64,000 nucleotides of DNA, from the sequence record PQ799574.1. One strand, 5' to 3'. The notes under the pieces are model-generated. The model was not told where the DNA came from. It was given only the letters and a program-made list of their open reading frames with translations, and searched no databases. Position 1 is the stretch's first letter; the number at the start of each line of letters is the position of its first letter. Shown one piece after another: positions 9,523 through 64,000 of the stretch. Origin of the DNA: Escherichia phage vB_EcoM_Maryam. Made by a program: the position numbers and the translations under genes.

Positions 9523-9523
9523 G

Positions 9524-10082: not shown

Positions 10083-10213
10083 TATCTAGGCCTTTCCAGG
10101 CCTCTCTAGGCATCATTTAGTTTCTACCCTTTATAATATATTATCCTATCCTTTGATTTCCCCTCCCTGCCCTAGAATTCCCCAAAACTTTTTAAAAATT
10201 TTTTCACAAAACT

Positions 10214-10245
10214 GTTTACATCCCTGTTCTTCTATGGTACTATAC
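10214..10245 (+). promoter_or_regulatory. T4-type early promoter (GTTTAC ... TGGTACTATAC)
   Basis: -35 GTTTAC, 15-nt spacer, extended -10; A/T-rich upstream ttttcacaaaa. Confidence 0.7.
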
Positions 10246-10286
10246 AACTATCAACTACTGATACAGAAAACAACTTGGAGAATGAA

Positions 10287-10550
10287 ATGGATAATTACGG
10301 TGAACTGTTCAACTTTTTTATGAAATGTGTTTCAGAAGATTTTGGTCGTACAGTGAATGATATTAAAGTTATCGGTCCTGACCATCCGATGTTTGAAACT
10401 TACGCAGTAATGGGTAATGAAGATGGTCAGTGGTATACTGTAAAGGTTGTGATTAATATGTTCACAGCAGAAGGTTATGTTAAACTGTCTTCTAAAGTTT
10501 ACCATGATAACGATGAAATCGCAGAAGAATATTTCAATAATATGAAATAA
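10287..10550 (+). CDS. hypothetical protein
   Basis: 87 aa from ATG 10287 (track start 10275 is TTG); ggag RBS. Confidence 0.5.
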   Translation: MDNYGELFNFFMKCVSEDFGRTVNDIKVIGPDHPMFETYAVMGNEDGQWYTVKVVINMFTAEGYVKLSSKVYHDNDEIAEEYFNNMK

Positions 10551-25189: not shown

Positions 25190-25216
25190 GGGAGCCTTCG
25201 GGCTCCCTTTTTTTAT
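25190..25216 (+). terminator. rho-independent terminator (gggagcc-ttcg-ggctccc + T7)
   Basis: perfect 7-bp stem, UUCG loop, ttttttt. Confidence 0.75.
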
Positions 25217-25238
25217 TTCAAAAATTTTTCACAAAACG

Positions 25239-25270
25239 GTTTACAAGCATAAAGCTTTATGGTACTATAC
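25239..25270 (+). promoter_or_regulatory. T4-type early promoter (GTTTAC ... TATGGTACTATAC)
   Basis: member of repeated promoter cassette family. Confidence 0.7.
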
Positions 25271-25302
25271 AACTATCAACTGATACTGATTTGGAGAATA
25301 AA

Positions 25303-26271
25303 ATGAAAACTGTAACTATCAATAAGGGTATCTACTTCGGTAAAGAAATCTCTGGAACTTTTGAGCTCTTAGGCGAATGGTTCCCAGATAATGCTCCGGT
25401 AGATGCGCAAGGAGATGGTAAAGTTTTTGTTGAAATTGACGGTAAACGTCGCGGTGTTTGGGTTTACAAATCAGACATTTCATATGATGGTGTAAAAGTT
25501 GAAGAAGTTAAAGAATCGTATGAAGATATGAAAACCCGCATTAATAAAAGATTTAATGTTATGGGAATGATGACGAATGGTATTATTAACGGAAACATTC
25601 GTTCATTAATTATCTCTGGTGCGGCAGGTATTGGTAAAACGTATTCTTTAGATAAAGCTTTAAATAAAGCAAATGATATTGGATACATTGAATATAAAAG
25701 CATTAACGGTAAAATCTCCGGTATCGGTCTTTATGAACAGCTTTGGAATAATCGTGAAGAGAATTCTGTCCTTTTGATTGATGATGTGGATGTTTTCTCT
25801 GATATGGACATTCTTAATCTTCTGAAAGCTGCTCTGGACACTGGAGAGACCCGTAAAGTCTGCTGGAGCACCGCATCTTCTTACTTAGAAGAAAAAGGCA
25901 TTGAGCGTGAGTTTGAATTTAAAGGAACGATTGTTTTTATCACAAACGTTGACATTGACCGCGAATTAGACCGTGGTACTAAACTTGCTCCACATTTACA
26001 AGCATTAGTGTCCCGCTCAGTTTATTTGGATTTGGGTGTTCACACTAATGAAGAAATTATGGTCAGGGTTGAAGATGTTATTCTTTCAACTGACATGATG
26101 CAAAAACGCGGTCTTTCTGATGAAGAAACTTATAAAGCATTATCATGGATGAAAGTCAATGTTAACCGTTTACGCAATGTTTCACTGCGTACTGCACTTT
26201 ATCTTGCTGACTTTATTATGACCGACAAAAACGGTTGGGAAGAAATCGCTGAGGTTACTCTTCTGAAATAA
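25303..26271 (+). CDS. AAA+ family ATPase
   Basis: 322 aa from ATG 25303; Walker A GAAGIGKT, Walker B VLLIDDVD. Confidence 0.6.
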   Translation: MKTVTINKGIYFGKEISGTFELLGEWFPDNAPVDAQGDGKVFVEIDGKRRGVWVYKSDISYDGVKVEEVKESYEDMKTRINKRFNVMGMMTNGIINGNIRSLIISGAAGIGKTYSLDKALNKANDIGYIEYKSINGKISGIGLYEQLWNNREENSVLLIDDVDVFSDMDILNLLKAALDTGETRKVCWSTASSYLEEKGIEREFEFKGTIVFITNVDIDRELDRGTKLAPHLQALVSRSVYLDLGVHTNEEIMVRVEDVILSTDMMQKRGLSDEETYKALSWMKVNVNRLRNVSLRTALYLADFIMTDKNGWEEIAEVTLLK

Positions 26272-45932: not shown

Positions 45933-45992
45933 ATGAAACTGTCTAAAGATACTACTGCTCTGCTTAAAAATTTCGCTACTATTAACTCGTAA
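45933..45992 (+). pseudogene. 45: truncated sliding clamp gene 45: first 19 codons then stop
   Basis: MKLSKDTTALLKNFATINS matches recalled gp45 N-terminus; expected GIMLKSG continuation is replaced by TAA; rest of the 228-codon gene absent. Confidence 0.8.
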
Positions 45993-46159: not shown

Positions 46160-46375
46160 TTAGATTGATAGGTCTTTAATCTTAGCTATTAAAACAGCTT
46201 TTCCTTCACGAAGTTTTTCCAGTTTACGACCATTAGAGCCGCGAACTACTAAGGAATTTATCTCCACTTCCAACCAATTTAGTTTTTCAACTAGTTCTTT
46301 ACGTTTAGCATTCATGCCGGGTTTAACTTTACCGAAACGGGTGGTAGCGTTTTGAGTATTTTTCATCTTATTCAT
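46160..46375 (-). CDS. hypothetical basic protein
   Basis: 71 aa; ggag RBS. Confidence 0.5.
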   Translation of the reverse strand: MNKMKNTQNATTRFGKVKPGMNAKRKELVEKLNWLEVEINSLVVRGSNGRKLEKLREGKAVLIAKIKDLSI

Positions 46376-46414
46376 TTTAATCTCCAGTTATTTTTCTGTA
46401 TCAGTGTTGATAGG

Positions 46415-46447
46415 GTAATAGTACCATGGAATGCTTTGGTTGTAAAC
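46415..46447 (-). promoter_or_regulatory. T4-type early promoter, minus strand (GTTTAC ... TGGTACTATTAC)
   Basis: reverse complement shows GTTTAC, 15-nt spacer, extended -10; shares ctattaccctatcaac with the promoters at 6061 and 6361. Confidence 0.65.
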
Positions 46448-46469
46448 CGTTTTGTGAAAAAAATTTTAA

Positions 46470-46497
46470 ATAAAAAAGGGAGAGCCGAGGCTCTCCC
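46470..46497 (-). terminator. rho-independent terminator, minus strand (gggagagcc hairpin + T run on minus)
   Basis: 9-bp GC stem; A run precedes on plus strand, so T run follows on minus. Confidence 0.65.
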
Positions 46498-47977: not shown

Positions 47978-47981
47978 AAAT

Positions 47982-49095: not shown

Positions 49096-49210
49096 AATTC
49101 ACCTCAAGGAGTATAAAATCCGAATGCAGTTGTTGACCATCCCATCCAGTATGGGAAATTTGCACCAATGTAAAACATAAGAATATAAAACCAACCGCTC
49201 AGCAAATTCA

Positions 49211-49429
49211 TCATTTTACACCGTTCCAAATTGTTTCAACCACGGATTTTAAGCCATTTTGATGAATGTCCATTCCAACTACCGCCATCAAATAGATTCC
49301 AACTACAACTGAACCTAAGGCAAAAATCAGCATGAAAATGAATAAAGCCGGAAAAATATTATCGAAAAACCATTCAATAAATGTAAAAGCACTGCGTTTA
49401 CGCTTCATATTTTCCTCACATAAATCCAA
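49211..49429 (-). CDS. small membrane protein
   Basis: 72 aa; TM helix. Confidence 0.45.
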   Translation of the reverse strand: MDLCEENMKRKRSAFTFIEWFFDNIFPALFIFMLIFALGSVVVGIYLMAVVGMDIHQNGLKSVVETIWNGVK

Positions 49430-49529
49430 AGTAAACGTTTAATACATCAATCATTAAAACGATTGGGAATATACTCAAAACAACTAAAATTATAATTATA
49501 TTCCATATAGCTTTAATAATCTTTTTCAT
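49416..49529 (-). CDS. small membrane peptide
   Basis: 37 aa from ATG 49529 with ggagg RBS; longer ORF-track version runs through a promoter. Confidence 0.35.
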   Translation of the reverse strand: MKKIIKAIWNIIIILVVLSIFPIVLMIDVLNVYFGFM

Positions 49530-49554
49530 TTTGTGTTCCTCCGTGGTTGATAGG

Positions 49555-49587
49555 GTAATAATACCACAGAGGAACAGTCTTGTAAAC
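49555..49587 (-). promoter_or_regulatory. T4-type early promoter, minus strand (GTTTAC ... TGTGGTATTATTAC)
   Basis: reverse complement gttgtttacaagactgttcctctgtggtattattaccctatcaacc. Confidence 0.65.
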
Positions 49588-49834
49588 AACTTTTTTAAAA
49601 ATATTCGTAATAAATGTGAATACCAATCACTACTGCCGAAACTTGCGCAACCCACCACGCACAAGCAATAAGTACAGAATTAAAAATTTTCATAATAACC
49701 TCATCACAAAAGTAAATGTTAAACAAATTACTGGAATACTAATTAACCAAACAAAACACCACCACAATGAACTCATAGTTCAATCTCAGCGATTTTCATT
49801 TTATTCTCCAAATCTGTATCAGTAGTTGATAGTT

Positions 49835-49866
49835 GTATAGTACCACGGTCCTTGTGGTATGTAAAC
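49835..49866 (-). promoter_or_regulatory. T4-type early promoter, minus strand (GTTTAC ... TGGTACTATAC)
   Basis: member of repeated promoter cassette family. Confidence 0.65.
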
Positions 49867-49881
49867 CATTTTGTGAAATTT

Positions 49882-50439
49882 TTAAATGGAAAGATACCAT
49901 CCATTGTAGTTGCTTTTTCTTACAACCTTACGAAGGTCTTCTCTATCACCGATGAACTTCGGAGTGTACTGGATGACACCTGGATGAATTTCTTTAGTGT
50001 TGAATATAATTATACAGTCCGCGACCTGGTGATTTAGAATGGGCCCTAGATTTATTCCAGAACCATATGGATACTCTCCGCTGCATCCTGTTGTTACAGA
50101 AATCCAACGTGAGTCAGTTTGATGTGTCTTAACTTCTACACGGAGCCCGCAATATTTTGGATGTGCTAAAACATCCCATGCATATGTGTACGGATCATTG
50201 ACATCTTCTTGGCCTTTATTGACATATCCGCTTAGCCAATCTGCTACAAAAAACTCTGCGTACACAGCGATACGGCATCTTTCGATAACTTCTGTCTTAT
50301 CCTGATTTGGGTTTTGTTTTAAAGAGTATCTTGCAGTATCAGCAATTTTGACCTTCATTTCACCAGTCAAGTCACTGTTCGATAGGGTAAATGTCGGAAT
50401 CTGAAATAGTCTCTGTAGCCCCGGATTCGTTTTCTGCAT
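49882..50439 (-). CDS. denB: endonuclease IV DenB (by position and size)
   Basis: 185 aa, between the ndd-region ORFs and rIIB. Confidence 0.6.
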   Translation of the reverse strand: MQKTNPGLQRLFQIPTFTLSNSDLTGEMKVKIADTARYSLKQNPNQDKTEVIERCRIAVYAEFFVADWLSGYVNKGQEDVNDPYTYAWDVLAHPKYCGLRVEVKTHQTDSRWISVTTGCSGEYPYGSGINLGPILNHQVADCIIIFNTKEIHPGVIQYTPKFIGDREDLRKVVRKSNYNGWYLSI

Positions 50440-50493
50440 TTAAACTTTCCTTTATGTCGGAATCACTGATATTCATATAATAAATCATAAAAC

Positions 50494-50512
50494 AAAAGGG
50501 CCGAAGCCCTTA
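50494..50512 (-). terminator. hairpin terminator (gggc-cgaa-gccc) with A/T runs on both sides
   Basis: GC stem with CGAA loop between convergently ending ORFs. Confidence 0.5.
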
Positions 50513-50514
50513 TT

Positions 50515-50709
50515 TTATTTGAATTGTGCAATTCTTTTCTCTAGACATTCAGCATAAGATTTCATTGAGATGAACTGTGAAAGCAGCAGTTCTTGCTCAA
50601 CTGCACTAACCGTTAGAAACTTTGTGCTTTCTAAAAATTTGCTCAGTGCATTAATTTTGAGCATTAATTGATCGTATTCTTCTTTTACTCGTGCTTGATA
50701 ACCTAACAT
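50515..50709 (-). CDS. hypothetical protein
   Basis: 64 aa. Confidence 0.45.
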   Translation of the reverse strand: MLGYQARVKEEYDQLMLKINALSKFLESTKFLTVSAVEQELLLSQFISMKSYAECLEKRIAQFK

Positions 50710-50737
50710 AATTTTCCTTAGTTAAGGGCCGAAGCCC

Positions 50738-51676
50738 TTATTTAAATTGTTCAGTAACGTCTTCAACTACTTCATATTGGCAGGTACGCATTTTAGCATC
50801 ATTGTAATCAATCGGAATTGATACTACATCACGTGGATGTACTTTAACTTTTACAACTCGGCTGGTTGAACTGCCAAAGTGACGAATATAAGATTTAGAA
50901 CACACATGCAGACCACGAGAACAAGTTTGTGTATCATCGTCATTCACACGAGTACGCGGCATTTTAACTACTTTACCAGGACTGTTATCAAAGGTATTTG
51001 AGTGACAGTCAAAGTAATTGCTGCGAACTACTTTCCAAGCATAGAAGTAACCATCTTCTGTAATTTCAATATCGTTTGCTACCAAGAAATCAAAAAGTCG
51101 AGATACCGCTTTCTGGCTTGGGTTTTCCAGCAGATTTTCCAAGAACGGAAAATAAAATTCAAAGTTTTCGCCTTTTTCCATCGAATCAAGAATACGATCA
51201 ACCAAACCAGACCGCAATTCAATATTTTGATAGAATAAGCTTCCACCTTCAATTCGAACATCGCCGGAAATATATTTTTCAACAGCACGACGAACATTAA
51301 TTTTTTGTGCCGCTTCTTCCAGCTTATCTGCTACAAGCAGATTAAGAATTTCCTGGAAGTTTGAATGAGTATTAGGAGTTGCGTTATAAGTTACACCGTC
51401 AACAGTAATTGAAATGAATTTTTTAGATGCATTCCAAATAATGTCAGATTTAGCAACTGGAGCAATAACTGCATCGCTATTAACTTTAACTGTAATATCA
51501 CCGCTAATAGTAACTTTAGAGCGTTTAGCTTCTTCAGCATTTTTCAAAACACGACGGATTGTGTCAACCGATACATCCTTCCAATAAGCTAATTCCTGCT
51601 GAGTGTAATTACCACTTGAATACAGTTTAACAATTTCAGCTTGTTCGTTTTTGGTCAGGCATTTAATATTGTACAT
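50738..51676 (-). CDS. rIIB: rIIB membrane-associated protein
   Basis: 312 aa; directly downstream of rIIA. Confidence 0.85.
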   Translation of the reverse strand: MYNIKCLTKNEQAEIVKLYSSGNYTQQELAYWKDVSVDTIRRVLKNAEEAKRSKVTISGDITVKVNSDAVIAPVAKSDIIWNASKKFISITVDGVTYNATPNTHSNFQEILNLLVADKLEEAAQKINVRRAVEKYISGDVRIEGGSLFYQNIELRSGLVDRILDSMEKGENFEFYFPFLENLLENPSQKAVSRLFDFLVANDIEITEDGYFYAWKVVRSNYFDCHSNTFDNSPGKVVKMPRTRVNDDDTQTCSRGLHVCSKSYIRHFGSSTSRVVKVKVHPRDVVSIPIDYNDAKMRTCQYEVVEDVTEQFK

Positions 51677-51687
51677 AATTTTCCTTA

Positions 51688-53865
51688 TTAGGCCGCAAGG
51701 GCCTTCATAGTTTTAGCGATTTGGGAAACTTCATCATCACTTAAAGAGTTGCGATATCCGATGAAGTCGGAAACAATACGGAATTTCTTGGTAAACTCAG
51801 CAACCATTTTATCACTGTTTTTTGAAGCATTATTTGATAATACATCAAAAAGATTAGTTACTGTCCAGATGTCATGACCGATGGTATCTTTTCCACCATT
51901 AAAATATACACCGCGCAATGAACTAACTATATTAGCGAGTCGTGTATATTCTTCAGAAACTTCATCTGTACTGAAGTACTTCATCATAAAATCTAGTTCA
52001 GGATACTTGATAATTTTATCAATATATCGTTGAGCTGAACTTGAATAACCTACATACTTATCATAATCTACATCATCAAAAGCATCTACATATAAATCAC
52101 GCAAAGCTTCAAAAATACATTGGCACTGACCGAGTTCTTTTACCTTTTTCTGTAAAAGCGGACGAATAACATAAAATTCATTAATGCCAATAAGATTAGC
52201 CATACGAATCAAAATATTCATAGATGGATGACAAAGAGATGTAGTACCATCCATAGAGAAAATATCAGAACGATGCATATACGCTACATAACCAGTAATT
52301 TCATCTGCTTCTGATGTGAGCGTAAATAATTCCTCTTTTTCCCATCGCCCATCTTTAATTTCAAACTTAAATGCTGTAGCAGCTTTAGGACGAGGAGCTT
52401 TACTTTTAACTACCTTTGGAATATAGCTTTTAACTAAAGCTTCAATTTCTGACAAATAATGAATGTTAACTTCATCACTTTCAAACATCGCCATAATATC
52501 AGGAAGTAAATCAATCTGCGATTCTACTTCCGGATTAATAAACAGAAGACGCTCATTGTGATGAATATTCAAAGTGTTATTAAATTCACTATCATCTAAC
52601 GCGTGTGCTAATCCACGGACAATATTAACACGATTTTTAATATTATCAATAACGATATTAATTTTTGTTGCATTAATACCAAACAGACGATAACTTGATG
52701 CAACGGCTGAAGTTTCATGACTTTGCTTAATGCGCTTCAGTCGAGGGTCAAGATTTACTTCATACACAACTCCTGCATTACATAACTTACTATCAGGTTC
52801 AAACATGCTTTGCATCTTCTTATATGACAGATTTTTAGTCGTAAATTTGACTGAATTACTAATCATATAATCTCGAGCAGAATACCCCATCTTCATCAAT
52901 TCACGATATGTATGACGGGGAGATGTGGATTCTTTAAATCGTTTTACATCTTCATTAAATGCTTTCTCACTGAGTTCTTTAACTCGTTCAATGATATTTT
53001 TACGAGTGCGATCATCTAGTGAAAGAGCCTCGCGAGATGGAGCAATATCAAGTGAACCCATTGGAAACTTAATGTAATTCACTTCATTGCGAATGCTTAG
53101 CCAGTTACGGTCTCTAATAACACCATCGATAGGATAAACAATACCGCCATAGATAGCATATAATCCACCACGATCAGGCCAGTATCTTTCTGGATTTACA
53201 CCATAATAATCATCAAAATCCGGAAAATAATCAATTTCACGGTCAAGACCATTAATGATAGCCAAATCTTTGAACGGTCGCATGATATAAGAAACTTCAT
53301 AAGCAAAGTTTCTAAAGTCTTTTTCTTCAACTGGAACTACGATTTCAATACCAGTTTTATCATCTGGACCCATTTCTTTTACGAATGTAGGTTTAATCTG
53401 TGGACCATCACCATCCATGTAAGCTACATAACCACGAATTTCACCTTTATGATACGAAGTAATACTAAACGTATCAGTATAACTAAACGGAGATTTAGAA
53501 CCTAAACCAAATCCGCCAATAAAGTCATTAGATTCAGCTTTAGATGAACTGAAGTATGAATTATACAACCCAGGAGAATTATCATCACCTTGAATATCAA
53601 AATCACTCATACCCGGACCAAAATCTCGACAAACAAATCGCGGGTCTAAACGTCCAGGAACTTGTATGATAAATTTCTCTGGATTTCCATTAAGTGCATG
53701 AGCATCAATCATGTTAGTAATCAATTCACGGACTACTGCGCGAATCTTGTTTGTATACAAATCAGACGACAGAATTTTAAATACTTTAGGAGATGCTGTG
53801 ATGCTAAATGCTTTCGATTTAGAACCATTACCAAGAATTGTTTCTTTTTCAGTGGTGATAATCAT
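51688..53865 (-). CDS. rIIA: rIIA protein
   Basis: 725 aa; GHKL-ATPase-like N-terminal region. Confidence 0.9.
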
Positions 53866-53875
53866 AATTTCCTCA

Positions 53876-54079
53876 TTAATTCATATTACGCTTAATAACT
53901 TCAGCAACTTCTAGTAGTTCATCTTTAGTTGCGGTGTCGGATTGAATTTTATCTCTAATATCTTTAAAGCGGTTTTTAAATTCTTCAGCTTCTCCCATAT
54001 CGAAAAAGCGTTGAATGATTCTATATTCTCGATGAACTGCTTTATCAAAAAGTTCTAAATTTACTTTATATGATTTCAT
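53876..54079 (-). CDS. hypothetical protein (rIIA.1 position)
   Basis: 67 aa; gagga RBS. Confidence 0.45.
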
Positions 54080-54100
54080 TTCAATATCCTCATTTGCCCA

Positions 54101-54134
54101 ATTAATTATACCACATCCTTGTGGTAAAGTAAAC
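54101..54134 (-). promoter_or_regulatory. T4-type early promoter, minus strand (GTTTAC ... TGTGGTATAATTAAT)
   Basis: reverse complement cagtagtttactttaccacaaggatgtggtataattaat; would drive rIIA.1-rIIA. Confidence 0.65.
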
Positions 54135-55954
54135 TACTGGCTCATCCATTCTTTACGAAGGTCAGCATTATCTCCCATGAGCATTTCAAAAAGCTCTTTC
54201 CAGTTCTCAGGAAGTTTAACAACATCATATACTGGGTTTTGAATCATCTCACGATATTCAGATTTTTCCAAAGAGCCAAGTCCCTTAATATAACGGATGC
54301 TATGTTTAGGTAGAGCATCTTTGGCACTCTCATATTCAGCGACTGTATAAAACCATTCTTGTTTTTTACCGACCTGAGCGATGATTACAGGAGTTTTGAC
54401 AAAGCGAATTCGTCCTTGCTCAAACAATTCTGGCCAATTACTAAAAAATCCAAGCAGAGAAGGATAAATGCTTCCTAGACCATCATGGTCAGCATCAGTC
54501 ATAATAGCAATATTATGATAATTCAAGTTTTCAGCTTTTTCACCGAGAACTAATCCAGTGATTGCGCAAATATCAAATAGTTCTTTGTTTTTAAGCATAT
54601 CAGCATATGACATACCCCAACTATTAAGAACTTTACCACGCAATGGATAACCACCATGAAGTTCTTTATCACGAACATCAATAAGATATCCGATAGCCGA
54701 ATCACCCTCAGTCAAGAAAAGAGTCGTGTCAGCATCTTTACCACAAAGATTCGCTTTAATATGTTTATGAACCTTAGCTTTAGAAGCCTTTTTAGCTGCT
54801 TTTGTTTCTGCTGCTTTTTCTGCTGCCAATTTACGAGCCAAAGCAGCTTCAATAATCGGCATTAGAATTGCTTCATTATTTAGAATAGCACGTGAAATCT
54901 TTTTAGCATCAAGCTGAATATGACTACGGATTTCACCAAATGGAGAAGTCAAACGCTCTTTAGTTTGAGAATCAAATCGCATGTTTTTCATATCACGAAC
55001 AAACATAACGATAGTCAAACATTCTTTAACACGTGCTTTAGTTACATCAATTTTGAATTTACGTTTGATTTGTGGAATAAGGTCTTCACAAATATCATCC
55101 ATAACACAGTCAATGTGATGGCCACCATTCTTAGTGTGAATGTTATTCACATAAGTTAATTGACGAAATCCATCCGGTGAACGACCAACCGCAATAGAAC
55201 AATTTTCTTGTTCTTGAACAATAGCATGTTCATCATACTGTCGTGCATATTTCTTAAAATTGCCCTGAACCTTTTTACCATTAAAGGTAAATTGAATATC
55301 AGGATAAACAACAGCAAGTGTCTGGAGACGATCTAGTGTAATATCAAGATAAACTTGGGACAGCTCATTAGTTTCAAATGACATAAAATCAGGAATGAAA
55401 GTAACACGTGTTCCTTTCCATTTTCCAGGAATATCTTCCCATGATTTATTTTCCATGCCATTTGAACAACGAACTACAATATTATTTTGACCATCACCCG
55501 TTTCACCAACAAACATCACAGAAAAAATGTTTGTCAAACTAGAACCAACACCATTCATACCGCCGGTGACACGTTCTTTATCATCACCAAAGTTACCACC
55601 CGCTTTTGGAATAGTCCAAGCAGCAACTGGACCAGGAATTTCTTCACCGGTAGGTGTTTTAACCATCGCTTGTGGAATACCACGACCGTTATCTTCAACT
55701 GTTACTTGATTGTTTTTAATAGTAACATTAATTTTATTTGCGAATTTAAACTTAGTACGAATACCTTCATCGACTGAGTTATCGATAATTTCATCAATAA
55801 GCTTAACAAGACCAGGTACATACTGAACACTTTCCCATTTACCAAACAGAAAGCGCTCATGCATTTCATTAGCAGAAGAGCCAATGTACATGCCACTACG
55901 CTTTTTGATATGTTCAATATCGCTCAGAATTTTAATTTCATTCTTAATCATCAC
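54134..55954 (-). CDS. 39: DNA topoisomerase II large subunit gp39 (GyrB-like), unsplit
   Basis: 606 aa continuous ORF; GHKL ATPase motifs incl. VEDNGRGIP; Toprim region; no gene 60 split. Confidence 0.9.
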   Translation of the reverse strand: MMIKNEIKILSDIEHIKKRSGMYIGSSANEMHERFLFGKWESVQYVPGLVKLIDEIIDNSVDEGIRTKFKFANKINVTIKNNQVTVEDNGRGIPQAMVKTPTGEEIPGPVAAWTIPKAGGNFGDDKERVTGGMNGVGSSLTNIFSVMFVGETGDGQNNIVVRCSNGMENKSWEDIPGKWKGTRVTFIPDFMSFETNELSQVYLDITLDRLQTLAVVYPDIQFTFNGKKVQGNFKKYARQYDEHAIVQEQENCSIAVGRSPDGFRQLTYVNNIHTKNGGHHIDCVMDDICEDLIPQIKRKFKIDVTKARVKECLTIVMFVRDMKNMRFDSQTKERLTSPFGEIRSHIQLDAKKISRAILNNEAILMPIIEAALARKLAAEKAAETKAAKKASKAKVHKHIKANLCGKDADTTLFLTEGDSAIGYLIDVRDKELHGGYPLRGKVLNSWGMSYADMLKNKELFDICAITGLVLGEKAENLNYHNIAIMTDADHDGLGSIYPSLLGFFSNWPELFEQGRIRFVKTPVIIAQVGKKQEWFYTVAEYESAKDALPKHSIRYIKGLGSLEKSEYREMIQNPVYDVVKLPENWKELFEMLMGDNADLRKEWMSQ

Positions 55955-56020
55955 TTATCCTCGTTTGGTTTCGGGAATATTATACTCCGGTAATCATAAA
56001 GCTAAAGGCCCGAAGGCCTT

Positions 56021-56290
56021 TTATTTAAAACGAATAGTTGAATCCTTAAAGAACAGCCCAGAACATACTGTTCCTTCTACTTTCTGCCCGGTAGGTCCAA
56101 TAGCACGAAATCCAGTATGTTGGAAATCATTTTCAGAGCAACCGAACCAGTTATATCCAGTGATTTCAATATTCGTAAAACCACTTGATGATAAAATTTT
56201 AGTTGCATTATCAGCATCAGTACATCCTACTAAAGATACTGCTAATACTAATGCTGCAATAGAACGATTAATATATTTCATAATTTTCAC
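56021..56290 (-). CDS. lipoprotein
   Basis: 89 aa; signal peptide with lipobox LVGC. Confidence 0.5.
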   Translation of the reverse strand: MKIMKYINRSIAALVLAVSLVGCTDADNATKILSSSGFTNIEITGYNWFGCSENDFQHTGFRAIGPTGQKVEGTVCSGLFFKDSTIRFK

Positions 56291-56658
56291 TTAAATTTAA
56301 TGGCTTGAAGAAGACTAATAACTCTCAAGCGACTTCTTTCATCTTTAACTGTAAAGGAAAGAGGGTCACCAGATTTCATAGTGATAGTGCATCCAAAATC
56401 AAAATTTTCGGGAACTTCTTTGAAGAAGTCAAATTCTTCATCATAAATTAGAACATTACTCTGACAACTATGAAGAATTTTTCCATCATTTCCAGATGCT
56501 GTACTAATCATTGTAACATTATGACCTTTCATATCTTCAACGATAAATTCACTAGTCAATATTACAGCATTAATAGAACTATTCCTATTACTAGCAGAAA
56601 GTAGAAATTTCTGTTCTTCACCTTCACGAATGCAATATTTCTTACCAATTTTAAACAT
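56287..56658 (-). CDS. hypothetical protein
   Basis: 123 aa. Confidence 0.5.
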   Translation of the reverse strand: MFKIGKKYCIREGEEQKFLLSASNRNSSINAVILTSEFIVEDMKGHNVTMISTASGNDGKILHSCQSNVLIYDEEFDFFKEVPENFDFGCTITMKSGDPLSFTVKDERSRLRVISLLQAIKFK

Positions 56659-56660
56659 AA

Positions 56661-56837
56661 TTACCCTTTAAGTAAATCGTAAAATCCACCATTCACATGC
56701 TTAGGAGCAGAAGGCCGACGAGTAGACAAACGATGACATTTAGGGCAAACATCATTTTCTCGTTCAGAAATCTTTTTAATTTTTTCATATTCATGCCCGC
56801 AGTCTTCAGATTGGCATTTATAATCATACATTGGCAT
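56661..56837 (-). CDS. zinc-ribbon protein (CxxC...CPxC)
   Basis: 58 aa MPMYDYKCQSEDCGHEYE...CPKC; below the ORF-track cutoff. Confidence 0.45.
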   Translation of the reverse strand: MPMYDYKCQSEDCGHEYEKIKKISERENDVCPKCHRLSTRRPSAPKHVNGGFYDLLKG

Positions 56838-56839
56838 AA

Positions 56840-57265
56840 TTATTCCTTAAAGTGTGCTTTCAGCATTTGATACAAGGACCATGCCTGTTCATTATTTTCA
56901 ATAGTAACTTTCATGACAGGAAATTCTGTGAAATCTTCTATTTGTTCTTGCTCTTTCTCTTCCTGCTCTTGCTCTTCAGCTGCCTGATATGGATTTTCCA
57001 CTTCATCAAAGAACTCGGCTTCGTTAGTAGAGAGCCAGATAAAGTTTTCGTCAAGGATATCACCATGTGTTGCATATCCAATTGTGCCAGTAAATGACAT
57101 AATTTTAGTAGGACGACCAAGATGGTCAACATCTAAAATTTTAAAAGGATGCATACCTAAACGTCGTGCATAAATTCCGTTATCAGTATGGTCTTTAATA
57201 AAAGCTTCTTGAGCTTGTTTATTTTTAAATTGATACCATTTATTAACTTCAAATTTAATAGCCAT
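56840..57265 (-). CDS. hypothetical acidic protein
   Basis: 141 aa. Confidence 0.5.
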
Positions 57266-57480
57266 TAATAAATTTCCTTCCAGTAAGTTGTGCCATCTTC
57301 AGTAATTTCACGAAATACACCGTAAATTGGTTGTTTATCACCAACCTTTTCATACACATAAACCGAAGTCAAGTGAGTAAACTTAACGGTATGTTCCTTT
57401 TGAACCACTACCAAATCTGGATCAAATAATACATCTTCAAATTCGTCATTAGTGCAATTCTGAACAATTTTACGTTTCAT
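57265..57480 (-). CDS. hypothetical protein
   Basis: 71 aa. Confidence 0.45.
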
Positions 57481-57493
57481 TACAATTTCCTCA

Positions 57494-57763
57494 TTAATTA
57501 AACATTGGAGCGATACGTTTCAGAAGAGTAGCAGCACCTTTAGCGAATTTTACATCATGAAAAACAGTTTCTTCTTCTGTAACAACTCGAACTTTAATAT
57601 TTTCACAATCCCAATTTTTACGAACAATCTTCAAAAGCTGCAGTAAATCTTTACATTCAGCAATATCGATAACACATCCACGAGAATCTTCCATTATCGC
57701 ACGATAACCGTAAGCCATACCATAATCGTTGAAAGATTGCTCGATGATAATTAAGTTTTCCAT
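57494..57763 (-). CDS. hypothetical protein
   Basis: 89 aa from ATG 57763; leader nearly identical to that of the 10287 gene. Confidence 0.45.
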   Translation of the reverse strand: MENLIIIEQSFNDYGMAYGYRAIMEDSRGCVIDIAECKDLLQLLKIVRKNWDCENIKVRVVTEEETVFHDVKFAKGAATLLKRIAPMFN

Positions 57764-57860
57764 TTTATTCTCCAAGTTGTTTTCTGTATCAGTAGTTGAT
57801 ATTGATATAGTACCATAATCAACTACTGATGTATATAGTTTTATGAAAAAATTTTAAACT

Positions 57861-58352
57861 TTATGCATAGCGAGCTTTGCTGTAGTGTTTAATCCAACTT
57901 TCAGGAATGACTTTGTATGTTCCTAAAAATACCGCGTTGTATAACTTAACGCCATCTTCTACCCATTGATCAGTAATGTATGCACACATAGCGCGAGTAC
58001 GGTTAACAACACCTTCCTCACCTTCAGTAAATTCAAACTCATAAGGAGCAACGAACTTGATAGCTTGACCGAGTTTCCACTTAAAGTCTACACCTACATG
58101 CGAAGTATCAATCGTTTCAATTCCTTTAGCGGGAACAGCTTTCAAAAACGCAGGCTCAAGAAATTTCCATCGAACATAACCAAACTGAGGTTTAGACATT
58201 CCATCTTTAGGAATGATACGCACTTTTACTTCAGAATCTTCATCTTTAACACCATGTTTAAGCTGAATGCTTACGACTTCAACCAATTTTCCTGCTGCTT
58301 TAGAACGGGATTTATCAGATACACGAGCAATTTCACCGATATTAATATTCAT
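57861..58352 (-). CDS. hypothetical protein (paralog of next ORF)
   Basis: 163 aa; C-terminal ITDQWVEDGVKLYNAVFLGTY motif. Confidence 0.5.
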   Translation of the reverse strand: MNINIGEIARVSDKSRSKAAGKLVEVVSIQLKHGVKDEDSEVKVRIIPKDGMSKPQFGYVRWKFLEPAFLKAVPAKGIETIDTSHVGVDFKWKLGQAIKFVAPYEFEFTEGEEGVVNRTRAMCAYITDQWVEDGVKLYNAVFLGTYKVIPESWIKHYSKARYA

Positions 58353-58425
58353 AATTATCTCTCACTTGTTAAAAAGATTTTATACTCCGCAGGACCATTA
58401 TACTCTGGTCCCAAGAGTTTGTAAA

Positions 58426-58926
58426 CTAGCTTACACGAACATTAATCACTGCGCTGCGAGGAACTACGGAGTACTCTCCAGCATGAACTACGTTCAGAAG
58501 TTCAACACCATCTTCAATCCACTGATCAGTTACCCAACCGCCAATCGGATTCGCGAATGGACGACGAATATAAACTGCCTTACACAACAAATCAGTCGGG
58601 TCTTCAATTTTTTCAACTGGTGTTACATACATAGAAACTAAATCCATATCAATATGGGATTTTTCTTGTTCTTCTTTTTCAATTTCTGTCAATAAATTGA
58701 AATCTTCTTCATAGATGATGAATGATGATACCCTTCCATAATAGTTTCTAATTTCCATGTACACTGTACCAATGAGAATTCCGCTATTAACACTAATAAC
58801 AGTAAAAGGATATCCGCCAGTTGTACCAAGAAGTTCCCAAAACTTGCTATCAGTCGTATTCGACATTGTCTGGAAATCAATTTCAGATGGTTTTTTCATT
58901 TGATACGTAGTATTAATTTTAATCAT
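58426..58926 (-). CDS. hypothetical protein (paralog of previous ORF)
   Basis: 166 aa; C-terminal VTDQWIEDGVELLNVVHAGEY. Confidence 0.5.
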   Translation of the reverse strand: MIKINTTYQMKKPSEIDFQTMSNTTDSKFWELLGTTGGYPFTVISVNSGILIGTVYMEIRNYYGRVSSFIIYEEDFNLLTEIEKEEQEKSHIDMDLVSMYVTPVEKIEDPTDLLCKAVYIRRPFANPIGGWVTDQWIEDGVELLNVVHAGEYSVVPRSAVINVRVS

Positions 58927-58935
58927 AATTTTCCT

Positions 58936-59448
58936 TTAATCTAAGGTAATAAAGCCTTTTAATTCGGCATGCGATTTGCGAAACATTACTTGATGCCCAC
59001 CAATGATAACTTGATCATCTGGCACTTCATAAATCGCAATGTACATTCCACGATCTTTTAAGTCTTCACGCTCTTCTCGAGTAAACCATCTCATTATATC
59101 ATATTCACTAGCGAAAGCAAAATGATATAATGCAATAAACCACAATGGAATATAATTTTCAATTCGTGAATAATCTTTATTCCATTTAGTTTTAATAGCA
59201 TCATTAGCATTTTCAACTAATAACTTATCATCGTGTGGAATAGGAATACTTTCATGACTTTCATAATCATTGCTATGATGATGAAATGATGATGAATTAA
59301 TACCGCAAAATTTTAGCCAAGTTCGAGTTTTCATAGAATCAAATCCACGATAAGGAGTTGATTGAACACATAACTCTTGCCTAATTTTCATTATACCACT
59401 ATCATCATTTAATGCGCTAAACGATGATTCAACACGATAAATTTTCAT
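58936..59448 (-). CDS. hypothetical protein
   Basis: 170 aa from ATG 59448 with gagga RBS; longer ORF-track version overlaps the promoter. Confidence 0.5.
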   Translation of the reverse strand: MKIYRVESSFSALNDDSGIMKIRQELCVQSTPYRGFDSMKTRTWLKFCGINSSSFHHHSNDYESHESIPIPHDDKLLVENANDAIKTKWNKDYSRIENYIPLWFIALYHFAFASEYDIMRWFTREEREDLKDRGMYIAIYEVPDDQVIIGGHQVMFRKSHAELKGFITLD

Positions 59449-59472
59449 TTTATTATCCTCAGTAGCTATGGT

Positions 59473-59505
59473 GTTATAATACCACAACTAACCGAGGAAG
59501 TAAAC
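59473..59505 (-). promoter_or_regulatory. T4-type early promoter, minus strand (GTTTAC ... TGTGGTATTATAAC)
   Basis: reverse complement gttgtttacttcctcggttagttgtggtattataac. Confidence 0.65.
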
Positions 59506-59511
59506 AACTTT

Positions 59512-60195
59512 TTATCGTTTTGTTGGAAGAGATAGAGGATCGCACTCTTCCTCTGATGGAGCGTCTTCAAGACCCATCGCATAGCGCAAAGCATACTTCA
59601 TCATCAGGATGTCTTTCGCACAGTCATGAATAGAATCATGCGCAACGAATCCATCTAAAGTTCCCTTTGGAAGAGGACATGTGGTCATATCACGAACAAG
59701 CAGAAGTGCTTCAATTCTGGTACGAATATCACGCTGATTCCAGAATTTACATGGTTCTAACTTAAATGTGTCAAGCTCATTCTCAGATACACCATTAAGG
59801 CGTTGAATATCACGAATGAGATCGACTAAAATTGGAAAATCAAACGACATTCCACGGCACCAGCCTTGAGATTTCCAAGGATCGATATTATGTGCATTGA
59901 TGTAATCATTAAATTTCGCAATACCGTCGATAGTGCTTACATCTTCATCGGACGGTGCAATATTTTTTCGAGCTTCAGGAGACTGATTTTTCCACCATTC
60001 GATAGTGCTTTTAGTAAAAAGACGGTGTCCTTTTTGGCTTTTTAAATCAAATTTGATTTTAATGCCGCGTGAAACTAATTCATCAAATGTTTCAACTACT
60101 TCTGGGTTAGGGTCAAAAGCAATTACAGCTAAATCAATAACAGCTGCTTTTTCACCACTTCCCATTGTTTCAAAATCTATAATAAAATCAAACAT
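59512..60195 (-). CDS. dexA: exonuclease A DexA (DEDD family 3-5 exonuclease)
   Basis: 227 aa; FDFIIDFETMG exo I motif. Confidence 0.85.
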   Translation of the reverse strand: MFDFIIDFETMGSGEKAAVIDLAVIAFDPNPEVVETFDELVSRGIKIKFDLKSQKGHRLFTKSTIEWWKNQSPEARKNIAPSDEDVSTIDGIAKFNDYINAHNIDPWKSQGWCRGMSFDFPILVDLIRDIQRLNGVSENELDTFKLEPCKFWNQRDIRTRIEALLLVRDMTTCPLPKGTLDGFVAHDSIHDCAKDILMMKYALRYAMGLEDAPSEEECDPLSLPTKR

Positions 60196-60452
60196 TAAAT
60201 TTTCCTTGCTAAATCGCGAATTTGACCTACAGTATAATCTTGGATATAAACTTTATTAATAGGCTCATCAATAAATTTTGACATAGATTCAATATCTTTT
60301 TGTATCTCTTCAAGACTGTATACTATCTTTAAAGCTTTTTCGCGAATAGTAATATTTTCAGGACCCTGATTTTCTTCAATGACAGCTTTAACATTTGTCA
60401 TAAGAGATTTAAATTGGTACCAACTTAATTCAATCATTAATAATCGCCTCAT
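60195..60452 (-). CDS. small protein (tandem paralog)
   Basis: 85 aa; LEEIQKDIESM. Confidence 0.45.
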   Translation of the reverse strand: MRRLLMIELSWYQFKSLMTNVKAVIEENQGPENITIREKALKIVYSLEEIQKDIESMSKFIDEPINKVYIQDYTVGQIRDLARKI

Positions 60453-60690
60453 AAAGATAGCTAATTTCGCCTAAAACATAATCATTAATTGTAACAGTTT
60501 TCACTTCACCGCAAAAGAATTCTAACGCAATTAAATCTCGTTCAATTTCTTCTAATTGAAGCATCAACTTATTAGATTCAATTTTTACAGTTTCACGATT
60601 TTTACCATGAGCAATTTCATAAATTTCGCTAATTTTATCCTGAAGAAGATAAAACTGATCTTTAGTTATTTCCACGAATAGCTTCCTCAA
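60430..60690 (-). CDS. small protein (tandem paralog)
   Basis: 86 aa; LEEIERDLIAL. Confidence 0.45.
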   Translation of the reverse strand: MRKLFVEITKDQFYLLQDKISEIYEIAHGKNRETVKIESNKLMLQLEEIERDLIALEFFCGEVKTVTINDYVLGEISYLYEAIIND

Positions 60691-60922
60691 ATTTAATTAG
60701 TAATTTACAGACACTTTCATCTAGTGTAATTACCGTATCTGTATTACTGTGATATGATTGTTTTTCAATTCGTTTAATTGCTAATATAGTATCACTTATA
60801 AGATAAAGCTTATGAAGGAGCTCAGCTCCTGTTACCATAACATTAAGATTATCTTGCTTATTAGTATGCTTCCTTATACCATCTATTAGACGATTTAAAT
60901 ATTTTGAATTGATGTTAATCAT
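60662..60922 (-). CDS. small protein
   Basis: 86 aa. Confidence 0.45.
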   Translation of the reverse strand: MININSKYLNRLIDGIRKHTNKQDNLNVMVTGAELLHKLYLISDTILAIKRIEKQSYHSNTDTVITLDESVCKLLIKFEEAIRGNN

Positions 60923-60928
60923 ATATCC

Positions 60929-62248
60929 TCACACATAAAATACGTCATAACGACCACGGGTAACACCAACATAAAGAAGTTGTTGAGCCAATTCAGCATC
61001 TGCATAATGAATACAAGGCGTATAAATGAAAGCACGGTCTACAGACATACCCTGAGCTTTATGGAATGTTGATGCAGGAAGTGCTTTCACTTTACTGAAC
61101 TGCGATTTAGCATCCCAAAAATCACTCCATGGAGCTTTTCCGCCTTTGTTCCAATTTTTATAAGTTTCTGCCGTTTTACCTAAAAATAGGTTAAACTTAT
61201 ACAATTCTTCATCAGATGAAATTATTTTAATCTTTTCACGATAATATTCATCATCGCCATAAGTTTCTACTGTTAAATCCCAATGACGAATTAAGTATTC
61301 CCCAGAAACACCACGAGCTTTAACAAACGTTGATGTATACTCTGCTTCTATAATACGAACTAATTGTCCGTTATTAAAAATAATTTCTGACACAGGCTTT
61401 CCATCAATTTTATATGTTTTAATTAATGGTTCCTGCATTACAATAATTTCACCGACAATAAAATCTTTATCAGTTTCAAAAATCTTTTTACGAATGATGT
61501 TATTTAACTTGTCAACAGATTTATTCGTAAATGCCATTACGCGATTTTCAAACAAATCATCTAGTGATTTTACGATTGAAAAATAATTTACCATAAAATC
61601 GCGTAAAGCGGTATCACCAGTAAATCCACGTACTCCATGCCCGTCAACAACTTTATCATAAATCCACTTACCGTTGCGAACATCAGTAGCTACATCAATA
61701 ATAGGAGCATTACTGCGTTTAACTTCAGTGAGTTCACACTGATAAAAATCTTTGTGTGTAAAGAATGGACTGATATAAGCAGTATTTTCTCCTGGGTCAA
61801 CAGGTCTAATTTGCTTATTATCGCCTATTCCAATTATAGTACACCACGGCGGAATAGTTGAAAGCAGAATTTTAAACAGCTTTCTATCATACATTGACAC
61901 TTCGTCACAGATTAATACTCTGCATTTAGCTAAATCTGGTACTTCCTTCTGCTCAAAGAGGACATTTTCTTCATATGTTACCGGGTTAATTTTAAGAATG
62001 CTGTGAATAGTACTCGCTTCTTTCCCTGATAGTTTTGAAAGAATCTTTTTAGCTGCATGAGTAGGAGCTGCTAAAATAATACCAGTTTCACCCGTAGATA
62101 TTAGGGCTTCAATGATGAATTTTGTAAGAGTAGTCTTACCAGTACCAGCAGGTCCATTAATAGTTACATGATGTTTCTTTTCTTTAATAGCCTTCATAAC
62201 AATGTTAAAGGCATTTTTCTGGCCTTCTGTCAAATCATCAAATGTCAT
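60929..62248 (-). CDS. dda: DNA helicase Dda (SF1B)
   Basis: 439 aa; Walker A GPAGTGKT, Walker B LICDEVSM. Confidence 0.9.
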   Translation of the reverse strand: MTFDDLTEGQKNAFNIVMKAIKEKKHHVTINGPAGTGKTTLTKFIIEALISTGETGIILAAPTHAAKKILSKLSGKEASTIHSILKINPVTYEENVLFEQKEVPDLAKCRVLICDEVSMYDRKLFKILLSTIPPWCTIIGIGDNKQIRPVDPGENTAYISPFFTHKDFYQCELTEVKRSNAPIIDVATDVRNGKWIYDKVVDGHGVRGFTGDTALRDFMVNYFSIVKSLDDLFENRVMAFTNKSVDKLNNIIRKKIFETDKDFIVGEIIVMQEPLIKTYKIDGKPVSEIIFNNGQLVRIIEAEYTSTFVKARGVSGEYLIRHWDLTVETYGDDEYYREKIKIISSDEELYKFNLFLGKTAETYKNWNKGGKAPWSDFWDAKSQFSKVKALPASTFHKAQGMSVDRAFIYTPCIHYADAELAQQLLYVGVTRGRYDVFYV

Positions 62249-62556
62249 CGGAAAGTCCCTGCAATTGGAATACTAACAATACGCCCAGTATCTAGAATTC
62301 GTTGATATAATCTTTGTGTATCTACATCAGGCTTAACATGTTTAACTTCTATTTTATTAAACCAAAATTTACGTGGGGTCTCAACTAATCTTGGAATTCC
62401 CTTACCTAAAGCTAGTTTATATTGGTCTTTGAGAGTAGTAAAAACTCTATCAGCAATCTCTCTTTCAAAAAACACAGCAGGACGATGTTCATCAAGTGGA
62501 ACTGGCGCCGTAAATCCGTCTTTGTCTCGGTAAACTATCGCATATACATAAACCAT
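62245..62556 (-). CDS. hypothetical protein (dda.1 position)
   Basis: 103 aa. Confidence 0.5.
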   Translation of the reverse strand: MVYVYAIVYRDKDGFTAPVPLDEHRPAVFFEREIADRVFTTLKDQYKLALGKGIPRLVETPRKFWFNKIEVKHVKPDVDTQRLYQRILDTGRIVSIPIAGTFR

Positions 62557-62557
62557 A

Positions 62558-63313
62558 TTATCCTCGGATAAGTTTAAAAATTGAACAATTTAGCGGGTAT
62601 CCTCTTTTCAGTTTAAGTTTATCAATAAAAGACAAGTTTTGATACCGCTCTACACCTTGAATAATTTTATCACACATATCATATTGCATTTCTGCTTCTG
62701 ACAACTTTTTCACAATTTTCCAATCCGAGCCTTTAAGAAGAACGTTCAGTTTAACAACTTCAGCGCCTTCTGCTATGCGAGAACCATCAATACGAGCTTT
62801 AAGTGCTATAATCTTTAGCTTAATGTCAGAGGTCTGTTTTGATTTAGAAAGCTGAGAAATGTGTTCAATTCGATTTTCACGTTTTTTCTGTATAGCTTTA
62901 ATTTGATTATAAGTCTTTTTGATTTTAGCCCATTTCTTTTCATCTAAATTTAGTTTATGAACTTTTTTCGCAGATGAACGACCAATTCGCAAAGCAAATA
63001 AATCCCGTTTTTCAATCAACTCTTCTAAAGTATAATCAGAACGAAATGTATTATACTTTTTCTTTACTGCAATAACATTCCCTTTAATGTATCCAATGTT
63101 ATTATCAAAACGTTCTAATGATAATTTCTCTCCTTCAATACGATTATCAAAAGGTTCTCCCGAGTAAGCACAAACTTTTTGATCTAAAATGTTCTTAATG
63201 TAATTGAAGTCTAAGTTAAAATCTTTAGAACGTCTTTTTGCAGATGCCTGAGTATGCTCTAAACGACGTTTAATTTTACGAATTTGATTATTAGACATAT
63301 TATGCAGTTTCAT
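62558..63313 (-). CDS. srd: Srd-like protein (by position and size)
   Basis: 251 aa basic protein downstream of the mod-like gene, upstream of dda. Confidence 0.55.
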   Translation of the reverse strand: MKLHNMSNNQIRKIKRRLEHTQASAKRRSKDFNLDFNYIKNILDQKVCAYSGEPFDNRIEGEKLSLERFDNNIGYIKGNVIAVKKKYNTFRSDYTLEELIEKRDLFALRIGRSSAKKVHKLNLDEKKWAKIKKTYNQIKAIQKKRENRIEHISQLSKSKQTSDIKLKIIALKARIDGSRIAEGAEVVKLNVLLKGSDWKIVKKLSEAEMQYDMCDKIIQGVERYQNLSFIDKLKLKRGYPLNCSIFKLIRG

Positions 63314-63344
63314 ATTTTTCTCACATCTTACGGACGATTGACTA

Positions 63345-63378
63345 CTATACTATAACATTTTTACCTTGGCTTGTAAAC
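63345..63378 (-). promoter_or_regulatory. T4-type early promoter, minus strand, for srd
   Basis: reverse complement ttgtttacaagccaaggtaaaaatgttatagtatag. Confidence 0.6.
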
Positions 63379-63434
63379 AATTTTATGAAAAATGCTTTAA
63401 AAATTTCATGGTATAATGAATCTAAGTCCTTCCA

Positions 63435-63992
63435 TTATAGATTAAATCCTTCAAAATCAAGAGTATAGATAGTGTATGTTGAGTACTTTTTGTACTCATA
63501 TCTATCTGCAATTCTAAATACACTTCCAGCTGGTATCATTACTTCTTGTTCATCTGAAACTAATTCCATATTACGATAACGATGACTATCCGGAAACTTA
63601 AAGTTTGGATTGTATTCTTTACAGCGTAGAGCTTTTATAGCATACTCCTGGAAATTGAATACCATAGGAGCTTTGAATTCAAAAATAACTTGTGTGTTAT
63701 ACTCTAAACCAGAAGCAAAATGTAGAGCTATATTTTTATCATATGAAGCTGATACGACTTTATCAAATGTAATAATATCAATTCCTTGATTTAATACTTG
63801 TTTAGTCTCAGCTGGAACACCTCTCCAAAGAGGTTTATCGTTTGGAACCAAACGAGATTTGATTATTTCATTTAACCAAGAATGATCGTCTGGTTTATTA
63901 GTAATACAATGAATTAAAAGTTCAATTTCAGATAAATTAAACCCTTCAGAAAGTAATTCTTCACGAATAGAAGCACGCACCGATGCATCCAT
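63435..63992 (-). CDS. modA: ADP-ribosyltransferase ModA-like
   Basis: 185 aa; ART-like R (LWRGVP) and S-x-S elements; position upstream of srd; start lies near window edge. Confidence 0.5.
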   Translation of the reverse strand: MDASVRASIREELLSEGFNLSEIELLIHCITNKPDDHSWLNEIIKSRLVPNDKPLWRGVPAETKQVLNQGIDIITFDKVVSASYDKNIALHFASGLEYNTQVIFEFKAPMVFNFQEYAIKALRCKEYNPNFKFPDSHRYRNMELVSDEQEVMIPAGSVFRIADRYEYKKYSTYTIYTLDFEGFNL

Positions 63993-64000
63993 TGATTTTA

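Follow-up and report, generated by a model that had tools for sequence, protein, structure and literature searches.

Why should a short intergenic segment between motB and cef recur, nearly letter for letter and on the opposite strand, in front of a different gene 47 kb away? The DNA analyzed here, a stretch of 64,000 nucleotides referred to below as the window, comes from a T4-like phage (Tequatrovirus). The sequence-only reading had described the two segments, which we call copy A (upstream of gene e.8) and copy B (between motB and cef), as an inverted repeat of a promoter-leader-start context, that is, as a substrate for homologous inversion and as a module reused on different cargo genes. 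Pairwise alignment of 10235-10290 (+) with the reverse complement of 57760-57815 bore out the match it had counted: 52 of 56 positions are identical (92.9%), ribosome-binding site and start codon included. The similarity is in fact longer than reported, extending ungapped over ~103 nt (10192-10294 versus 57756-57858) at 83% identity, so that on recount neither the 56-nt nor the ~103-nt alignment falls below 80%. The interval given for copy B, 57761-57818, does hold the repeat, with its exact coordinates off by 1 to 3 nt. Three of the four mismatches in the 56-nt core fall just 3' of the -10 box (ACAACT in copy A versus ATCAAT in copy B), and the fourth is a G/A difference within AATGAAATG (copy A) versus AATAAAATG (copy B); the longest exact run covers 35 nt (10249-10283). 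Since a 49-nt pattern searched with up to three mismatches matched only copies A and B in the window and nothing in 100 dinucleotide shuffles, the repeat is real and not a product of chance.

Both copies are built alike, from an UP region, a -35 box, a 17-nt spacer, TGG, TACTAT, an initial transcribed sequence TATCAACTAC, and a leader whose end, GGAGAAT(A/G)AAATG, combines a Shine-Dalgarno sequence with a putative RegB/S1 cleavage site (Table 1). A+T makes up 84% of the 25 nt preceding the -35 box in copy A and 88% in copy B, with AAAATTTTTTCA(C/T)AAAAC in common. T4 early promoters are known for a GTTTAC -35 box and an A-rich region from -40 to -44 (Nolan et al. 2006, PMC1524935), and they have been assigned to a UP/-35/TGn/-10 class with extra consensus regions (Hinton 2010, PMC2988021); the related consensus for PST/T4 PeSL promoters is TTTACW-N17-TAYWAT, with A/T-rich sequence upstream and a Shine-Dalgarno sequence and start codon downstream (PMC4122927). 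Copy A (GTTTACA-N17-TACTAT) follows this consensus without mismatch and copy B (TATACA-N17-TACTAT) with one, in the -35 box. The UP region, (G)TTTAC, the 17-nt spacer, TGG, and TAYWAT of T4 early (Pe) promoters are thus found in both, only the -35 box of copy B being weaker, and in both copies TGG lies directly 5' of TACTAT, as in an extended -10 element. Their position is also that of Pe promoters, directly upstream of small early open reading frames (ORFs) on the early-gene strand: copy A precedes e.8, and copy B precedes an ORF009-like gene followed by cef and goF, all co-oriented. By motif and context, copies A and B are therefore predicted T4 early (Pe) sigma-70 promoters. The GenBank and RefSeq records of T4 carry no annotated promoter features.

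Table 1. Positions of the two promoter-leader-start modules, their neighbors, further family members, and the junction within the window
Feature	Position	Strand	Remarks
Copy A, early promoter-leader-start module of gene e.8	10190..10292	+	motif scan, alignment; predicted promoter
Copy A, UP region	10190-10213	+	A/T-rich
Copy A, -35 box	10214-10220	+	GTTTACA
Copy A, TGG	10235-10237	+	end of 17-nt spacer
Copy A, -10 box	10238-10243	+	TACTAT
Copy A, predicted +1	near A10250	+	inferred from spacing; leader to 10286
Copy A, Shine-Dalgarno plus RegB/S1 motif	10277-10287	+	GGAGAATGAAA, one mismatch; ATG at 10287
Copy A cargo, gene e.8	10287..10550	+	87 aa, phrog_2678
Family member upstream of nrdC.10	25206..25305	+	exact GGAGAATAAAA site; leader 90% identical to that of the 49865(-) member
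Chimeric junction, blunt	45988..45989		tail-to-tail join that leaves 56 nt of gene 45 and 74 nt of motA
Family member upstream of motA.1/gene 52	46366..46476	-	matches copy A over 102 nt at ~78% identity, with leader and start
Family member	49785..49895	-	leader ATCAACTACTGATACAG-ATTTGGAGAATAAAATG, the A/B leader minus 6 nt (6-column alignment gap)
cef, next gene downstream of copy B cargo	57265..57480	-	
Copy B cargo, RB18ORF009/RB51ncORF009c type	57494..57763	-	89 aa, phrog_3720
Copy B, early promoter-leader-start module between motB and cef	57861-57759	-	predicted promoter
Copy B, ATG	57763-57761	-	
Copy B, Shine-Dalgarno	57773-57763	-	GGAGAATAAAA, exact T4 RegB/S1 consensus
Copy B, predicted +1	near A57800	-	
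Copy B, -10 box	57812-57807	-	TACTAT
Copy B, TGG	57815-57813	-	
Copy B, 13-bp perfect inverted repeat bracketing the -10 box	57788..57830	-	folding, self-match
Copy B, -35 box	57835-57830	-	TATACA, one mismatch to TTTACW; followed by 17-nt spacer
motB, gene upstream of copy B	57861..58352	-	stop TAA (57861-57863) within the A/T-rich region of the module

Such units have been described as PeSL cassettes, promoter-leader modules that stand before variable, unrelated small ORFs in T4-type phages (PMC2839356, PMC4122927). Copy B shows the composite order of these cassettes: its A/T tract holds the motB stop codon, after which come promoter, GGAG, and ATG. Copy A has the same composite layout, but its upstream element is noncoding sequence that follows a terminator. 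The two copies also differ in the stem-loop. In copy B, one arm of the inverted repeat (57830-57818, ATCAGTAGTTGAT) consists of the last base of the -35 box and the spacer, its partner (57800-57788, ATCAACTACTGAT) is the start of the leader, and the 17-nt loop between them contains TGG and TACTAT; the DNA folds at -12.7 kcal/mol (z = -3.5), a stability reached by 1 of 200 shuffles, and the same z score of -3.5 was obtained for motB read-through RNA across the stem-loop. PeSL stem-loops are mostly found between the -35 and -10 boxes or in overlap with the latter (PMC2839356). As the stem-loop of copy B overlaps its -10 box in this way, copy B is a typical PeSL, whereas copy A, near whose promoter no significant stem-loop was detected (DNA fold z = +1.3), is better described as a plain Pe promoter than as a full PeSL. 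The hairpin nearest to copy A is the terminator ~130 nt upstream (10050-10085). The hairpin of copy B could act as an attenuator or a processing site in motB read-through RNA, or it could modulate the promoter. Its 13-bp inverted repeat is kept in T4, while one pair is broken in RB18.

The end of the leader resembles a second known element. Efficient cleavage of early mRNAs by RegB/S1 in the Shine-Dalgarno region needs the sequence GGAGRAYARAA, of which GGAGAAUAAAA is the T4 form (Durand et al. 2006, PMC1702504; Uzan and Miller 2010, PMC3014915). This 11-nt consensus occurs five times in the window against 0.38 expected, and in all five cases its last base is the A of a start codon that lies downstream of a family-type promoter found by the motif scan. 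Exact GGAGAAUAAAA is present in copy B and in T4's copy A, while the window's copy A departs from it by one mismatch, a G at position 8. Two further features are shared with published RegB/S1 targets (PMC1702504; PMC3014915), namely the overlap of the copy B consensus with the Shine-Dalgarno sequence of an early intergenic region and the predicted single-stranded state of the RNA. Folding predictions describe both leader RNAs as weakly structured or unstructured (z = +2.1 for copy A and +0.5 for copy B). GGAG is unpaired in the minimum-energy fold of the copy A leader; in the -5 kcal/mol fold of the copy B leader it is weakly paired, yet this fold is no more stable than those of shuffled sequences. 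Leaders predicted to be unstructured fit RegB's requirement for a single-stranded GGAG. The leader end of copy B is thus a candidate RegB/S1 target, and that of copy A (GGAGAATGAAA) is a candidate with one mismatch. The text of PMC1702504 names neither e.8 nor cef as a RegB-cut site, and no mention of e.8 or of the ORF between motB and cef occurs in the text of the T4 promoter, PeSL, and RegB papers cited here. The A-to-G difference behind the mismatch in copy A (10282-10284, GGAGAATGAAATG) has two consequences at the sequence level: an additional ATG arises, out of frame and 5 nt upstream of the start of e.8, and the RegB/S1 consensus is lost at position 8. At this site, the base in T4 is A, and RB18 reads AACG.

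The pair is not unique: within a family of ~14 to 20 modules, several other pairs are as similar to each other as copies A and B. The motif scan returned 58 hits in the window, ~20 of them with the family architecture upstream of ORFs and ~14 with the extended leader consensus, and TATCAACTAC occurs six times where 0.17 occurrences would be expected. Likewise, a 103-nt copy A query matched 8 to 9 places per complete genome in 555 phage records. By the measure that gives 87% leader identity for copies A and B, the pair 25240(+)/49865(-) reaches 90%, and 26679(+)/49586(-) combines 87% with an identical 17-nt spacer; the 49865(-) member is also exact to copy A over 33 nt (10235-10267). Spacers, -10-proximal blocks, and pieces of leader occur in varying combinations across the family, a mosaic of the kind that recombination among cassettes would be expected to produce. 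Separately, we observed that the early promoters 26679(+) and 49586(-) have the spacer agactgttcctctgtgg in common and that 29648-29679 and 54105-54136, which belong to different early promoters, are 97% identical over 32 nt including the CCACAAGGATGTGG hairpin. Spacers shared in this manner between different early promoters show mosaic exchange of promoter subparts.

We then have to account for the orientation of the two copies. Positions 1-45988 of the window are 100% identical to PV290051.1, the first mismatch falling at 45989, 56 nt into gene 45, and everything beyond 45988 is ~97 to 99% identical to RB18-like phages. From 45989 the sequence starts inside motA and runs on through gene 52, ac, ndd, rIIB, rIIA, 39, goF, cef, motB, dexA, dda, srd, and modA. 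Projected onto RB18, the first block runs in reverse from 77.7 kb down to 31.1 kb, and the second (45989-64000) runs forward from ~161.4 kb through 166.7/0 to 12.3 kb. At 45988/45989, the first 19 codons of gene 45 thus meet the first 24 codons of motA. The two copies keep a common orientation in intact genomes. T4 has copy A upstream of e.8 at ~70.62 to 70.72 kb and copy B between motB and cef at ~6.48 to 6.65 kb, both on the minus strand; in RB18, they are found at 66,821-66,719 and 6,174-6,072, again both on the minus strand, together with all other family matches with an E value of 0.01 or better. Copies A and B are accordingly direct repeats, 60 to 64 kb apart, in both genomes. The same holds inside the window, where family copies are direct within each block (families D1 to D4 and D9), while nearly all long inverted pairs, including every one that contains a promoter module (I1, I3 to I15, I17, and I22), straddle 45988/45989. 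The inverted, 47-kb geometry of copies A and B follows from the joining of block 45989-64000 in reverse orientation. Hence, the description of the copies as inverted and 47 kb apart is literally correct for the window, but it depends on a blunt, nonhomologous junction. At 46.9 kb, the record of PV290051.1 (vB_EcoT_BCU-2, 1-46924) is itself labeled as a complete genome; it runs collinear with only ~47 kb, from gene 5 to gene 45, of Tequatrovirus genomes, which measure ~165 to 170 kb in the related records, and so covers only a part.

Could the window nevertheless record a true inverted repeat, across which homologous inversion generates isomeric arrangements of the phage genome? To this we attach a negligible probability. 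Besides the inverted copies in the window as given, the layout beyond the junction is what an in-place inversion of a ~36-kb segment, from gene 45 codon 19 to motA codon 24, would leave behind. However, the breakpoint of such an inversion lies away from the repeats, in a blunt join inside two genes at which we found no microhomology that might explain a recombinational inversion. One of the interrupted genes is gene 45, which encodes the sliding clamp and is essential in T4, and the otherwise identical PV290051.1 continues through it uninterrupted. None of the 688 phage records that match the flanks spans the junction, IMG/VR holds no exact match to it, and all family copies lie on one strand in T4 and RB18. 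Moreover, the longest exact run between copies A and B measures only 35 bp and falls below the roughly 50 bp needed for efficient homologous recombination in T4. Well-known genome inversions at inverted repeats, such as the invertible segments Mu G and P1 C and the isomers of herpesviruses, share with the window only the superficial likeness of two inverted copies; here no recombinase takes part, the breakpoint lies off the repeats, and real genomes have the copies in direct orientation. Since the essential gene 45 is cut, the junction is best taken as an artifact of assembly or concatenation and not as a viable arrangement. The idea that the repeat serves as a substrate for homologous inversion is therefore not supported; a crossover between copies in their natural, direct orientation would delete or duplicate ~60 kb instead of inverting it. 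As judged from the sequences compared, the inverted orientation is without biological meaning and is the product of a gene-disrupting join, and any inference from inverted repeats or synteny across 45988/45989 is unsafe.

The remaining alternatives concern the likeness of the two copies itself. The same motifs could have been selected independently at both loci, without shared ancestry or recombination between copies A and B, and indeed most of the conserved blocks correspond to functional motifs already known, which are found repeatedly in the family (PMC2988021, PMC1702504). The 35-nt exact run, however, includes CTGATACAGAAAACAACTT, a stretch that most family members lack or possess only in part; it is thus not required for function, and its identity in the two copies is best explained by descent. 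As other members (I4, I8, I12, and I13) share spacers and leaders in mosaic fashion, which also points to recombination, convergence by itself is improbable. We consider it still less probable that a dedicated cis-regulatory RNA element resides in the leader core, for example a binding site for an early translational regulator of the phage or for a small RNA, by which e.8 and the ORF between motB and cef would be coregulated. Perfect conservation of the core at both loci and in T4, RB18, and the window, together with related versions of it in front of two or three other early ORFs, would agree with such a role, but the genomes compared are ~96 to 98% identical overall, so that this conservation carries little weight, and the e.8 leader of Dhakavirus is without the core. 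Nor is the leader RNA predicted to be structured, and no Rfam family matches the core: a scan of the whole window returned nine tRNAs only, with no match in either leader. What best explains the data, and very probably holds, is that copies A and B are two T4-type early-promoter/leader/ribosome-binding-site cassettes (Pe, or composite PeSL) related by common descent through recombination, their inversion being an artifact of the join.

What the sequences themselves show is the anatomy, the family membership by motif, the orientation in reference genomes, the junction, and the distribution of cargo; we infer promoter activity, the +1, RegB cleavage at both sites, and the direction and mechanism of cassette exchange. 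The sigma-70 host RNA polymerase would bind the UP element, the -35 box, the TGG extended -10 element, and TACTAT, and transcription would probably start at the A of TATCAAC. The product would be a 37-nt, essentially unstructured leader, the end of which would serve both as Shine-Dalgarno sequence and as 11-nt RegB/S1 target, so the message could be translated at once and then be inactivated by RegB a few minutes into infection. While the promoter parts of copies A and B follow the family consensus, the 35-nt leader core goes beyond it and would reflect common descent, with cassette recombination placing one module before different small ORFs.

The genes behind the two modules are unrelated, as had been claimed. 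BLASTP of e.8 against the 89-aa ORF gave an E value of 7.5, the two proteins belong to different PHROGs, and a Pfam search with both returned nothing above threshold. The cargo of copy B is intact in ~260 of ~670 Tequatrovirus records and degraded in T4, where the copy B module is followed, between motB and cef, by a remnant ORF of 11 codons that carries no annotation (positions 2010-2075 of the T4 sequence used). This loss corresponds to a 208-nt internal deletion between short A-runs; removal of the T4 cargo by PeSL recombination was considered and rejected on account of this deletion and the remnant it leaves. From one related phage to another, small ORFs are thus inserted, deleted, or replaced at these loci, as described for PeSL units, though the loss in T4 is not a PeSL crossover. 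Copy B itself is identical in T4 and 98% identical in RB18, and in T4, RB18, and the window alike, each copy retains the bases specific to its locus. Stable locus-specific bases speak for an A/B duplication that is old, stable, and not homogenized, and recent gene conversion between the copies was rejected on the same observation.

Distant homologues of the copy B cargo were found only in Klebsiella and Raoultella phages (139 records, ~42 to 44% amino acid identity). The one we examined, in Klebsiella phage Merci (Jiaodavirus; 44% identity), lies between the tRNA cluster and an e.6 orthologue (62% identity), which is the slot of copy A, and is preceded by a Pe plus GGAGAATAAAATG module. In Tequatrovirus, Dhakavirus, and Karamvirus, the same tRNA-proximal slot holds e.8 behind a similar leader. 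Leaders in this slot are alike across genera whichever ORF follows, a similarity over short, consensus-rich sequence that is suggestive of orthology. The slot therefore holds e.8 or an ORF009 homologue depending on the genus, and the proposal that promoter-leader modules are reused on different cargo stands, as documented PeSL behavior. The simplest reading of these arrangements would be that the promoter-leader keeps its place in the slot, that one ORF replaces another behind it, and that Tequatrovirus holds the ORF009-type gene, with an A-type leader, at a second location. It is tempting to speculate that the 35-nt core is the footprint of a long-range move, in which an ancestor of Tequatrovirus received an ORF009-type gene, with the leader of the tRNA-proximal early promoter, in its motB-cef gap, ~60 kb from the slot still occupied by such a gene in Jiaodavirus, and in which e.8 came to fill the vacated slot, but we put this forward only tentatively, as a possibility on the unlikely side. 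Since only Tequatrovirus and Jiaodavirus hold the ORF009 family, the move may be read in either direction. The PeSL units of Arbiol et al. (2010, PMC2839356) and Comeau et al. (2014, PMC4122927) resemble copies A and B in their composite build, their variable small ORFs, and their differing cargo, and copy B also in its stem-loop, which copy A lacks in significant form; the documented events, however, are local mini-circle excisions and insertions between neighbors, in contrast to the 60 to 64 kb that separate copies A and B. If true, a long-range move would extend PeSL-type shuffling from local indels to transfer between genome regions and possibly between genera.

Just upstream of copy A, the terminator hairpin (CTTAGCCC..GGGGCTTTTTGGTAT) forms a 36-nt direct repeat (9491-9526 versus 10050-10085, 92% identity), the two copies of which flank a 157-aa ORF of the RB32ORF132c type (9572-10045). 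In T4, the ORF is missing and the hairpin is present only once, and recombination between the terminator repeats appears to have inserted or deleted the ORF. The tRNA cluster (7355-8815) comprises nine genes, including tRNA-Tyr and a tRNA with a CAU anticodon, compared to eight in T4, and an ORF (8029-8736) lies between tRNA-Tyr and tRNA-Arg. Finally, an inverted similarity of 82 nt (1411-1492 versus 13924-14005, 73%) connects gene 5 (tail lysozyme, minus strand) with gene e (lysozyme, plus strand), presumably reflecting the homology of the two annotated lysozymes.

Taken together, each functional element of the two modules, i.e., the Pe promoter, the PeSL cassette, and the RegB/S1 site, has a published counterpart, so that the finding is already known, and the idea of module reuse is the PeSL hypothesis itself. 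The locus thus adds little new biology; its by-products are the detection of a chimeric join and an example of cargo exchange across genera. This example, in which e.8 and ORF009 alternate behind one conserved promoter-leader slot in four genera, could seed a survey of cassette traffic in the Straboviridae.
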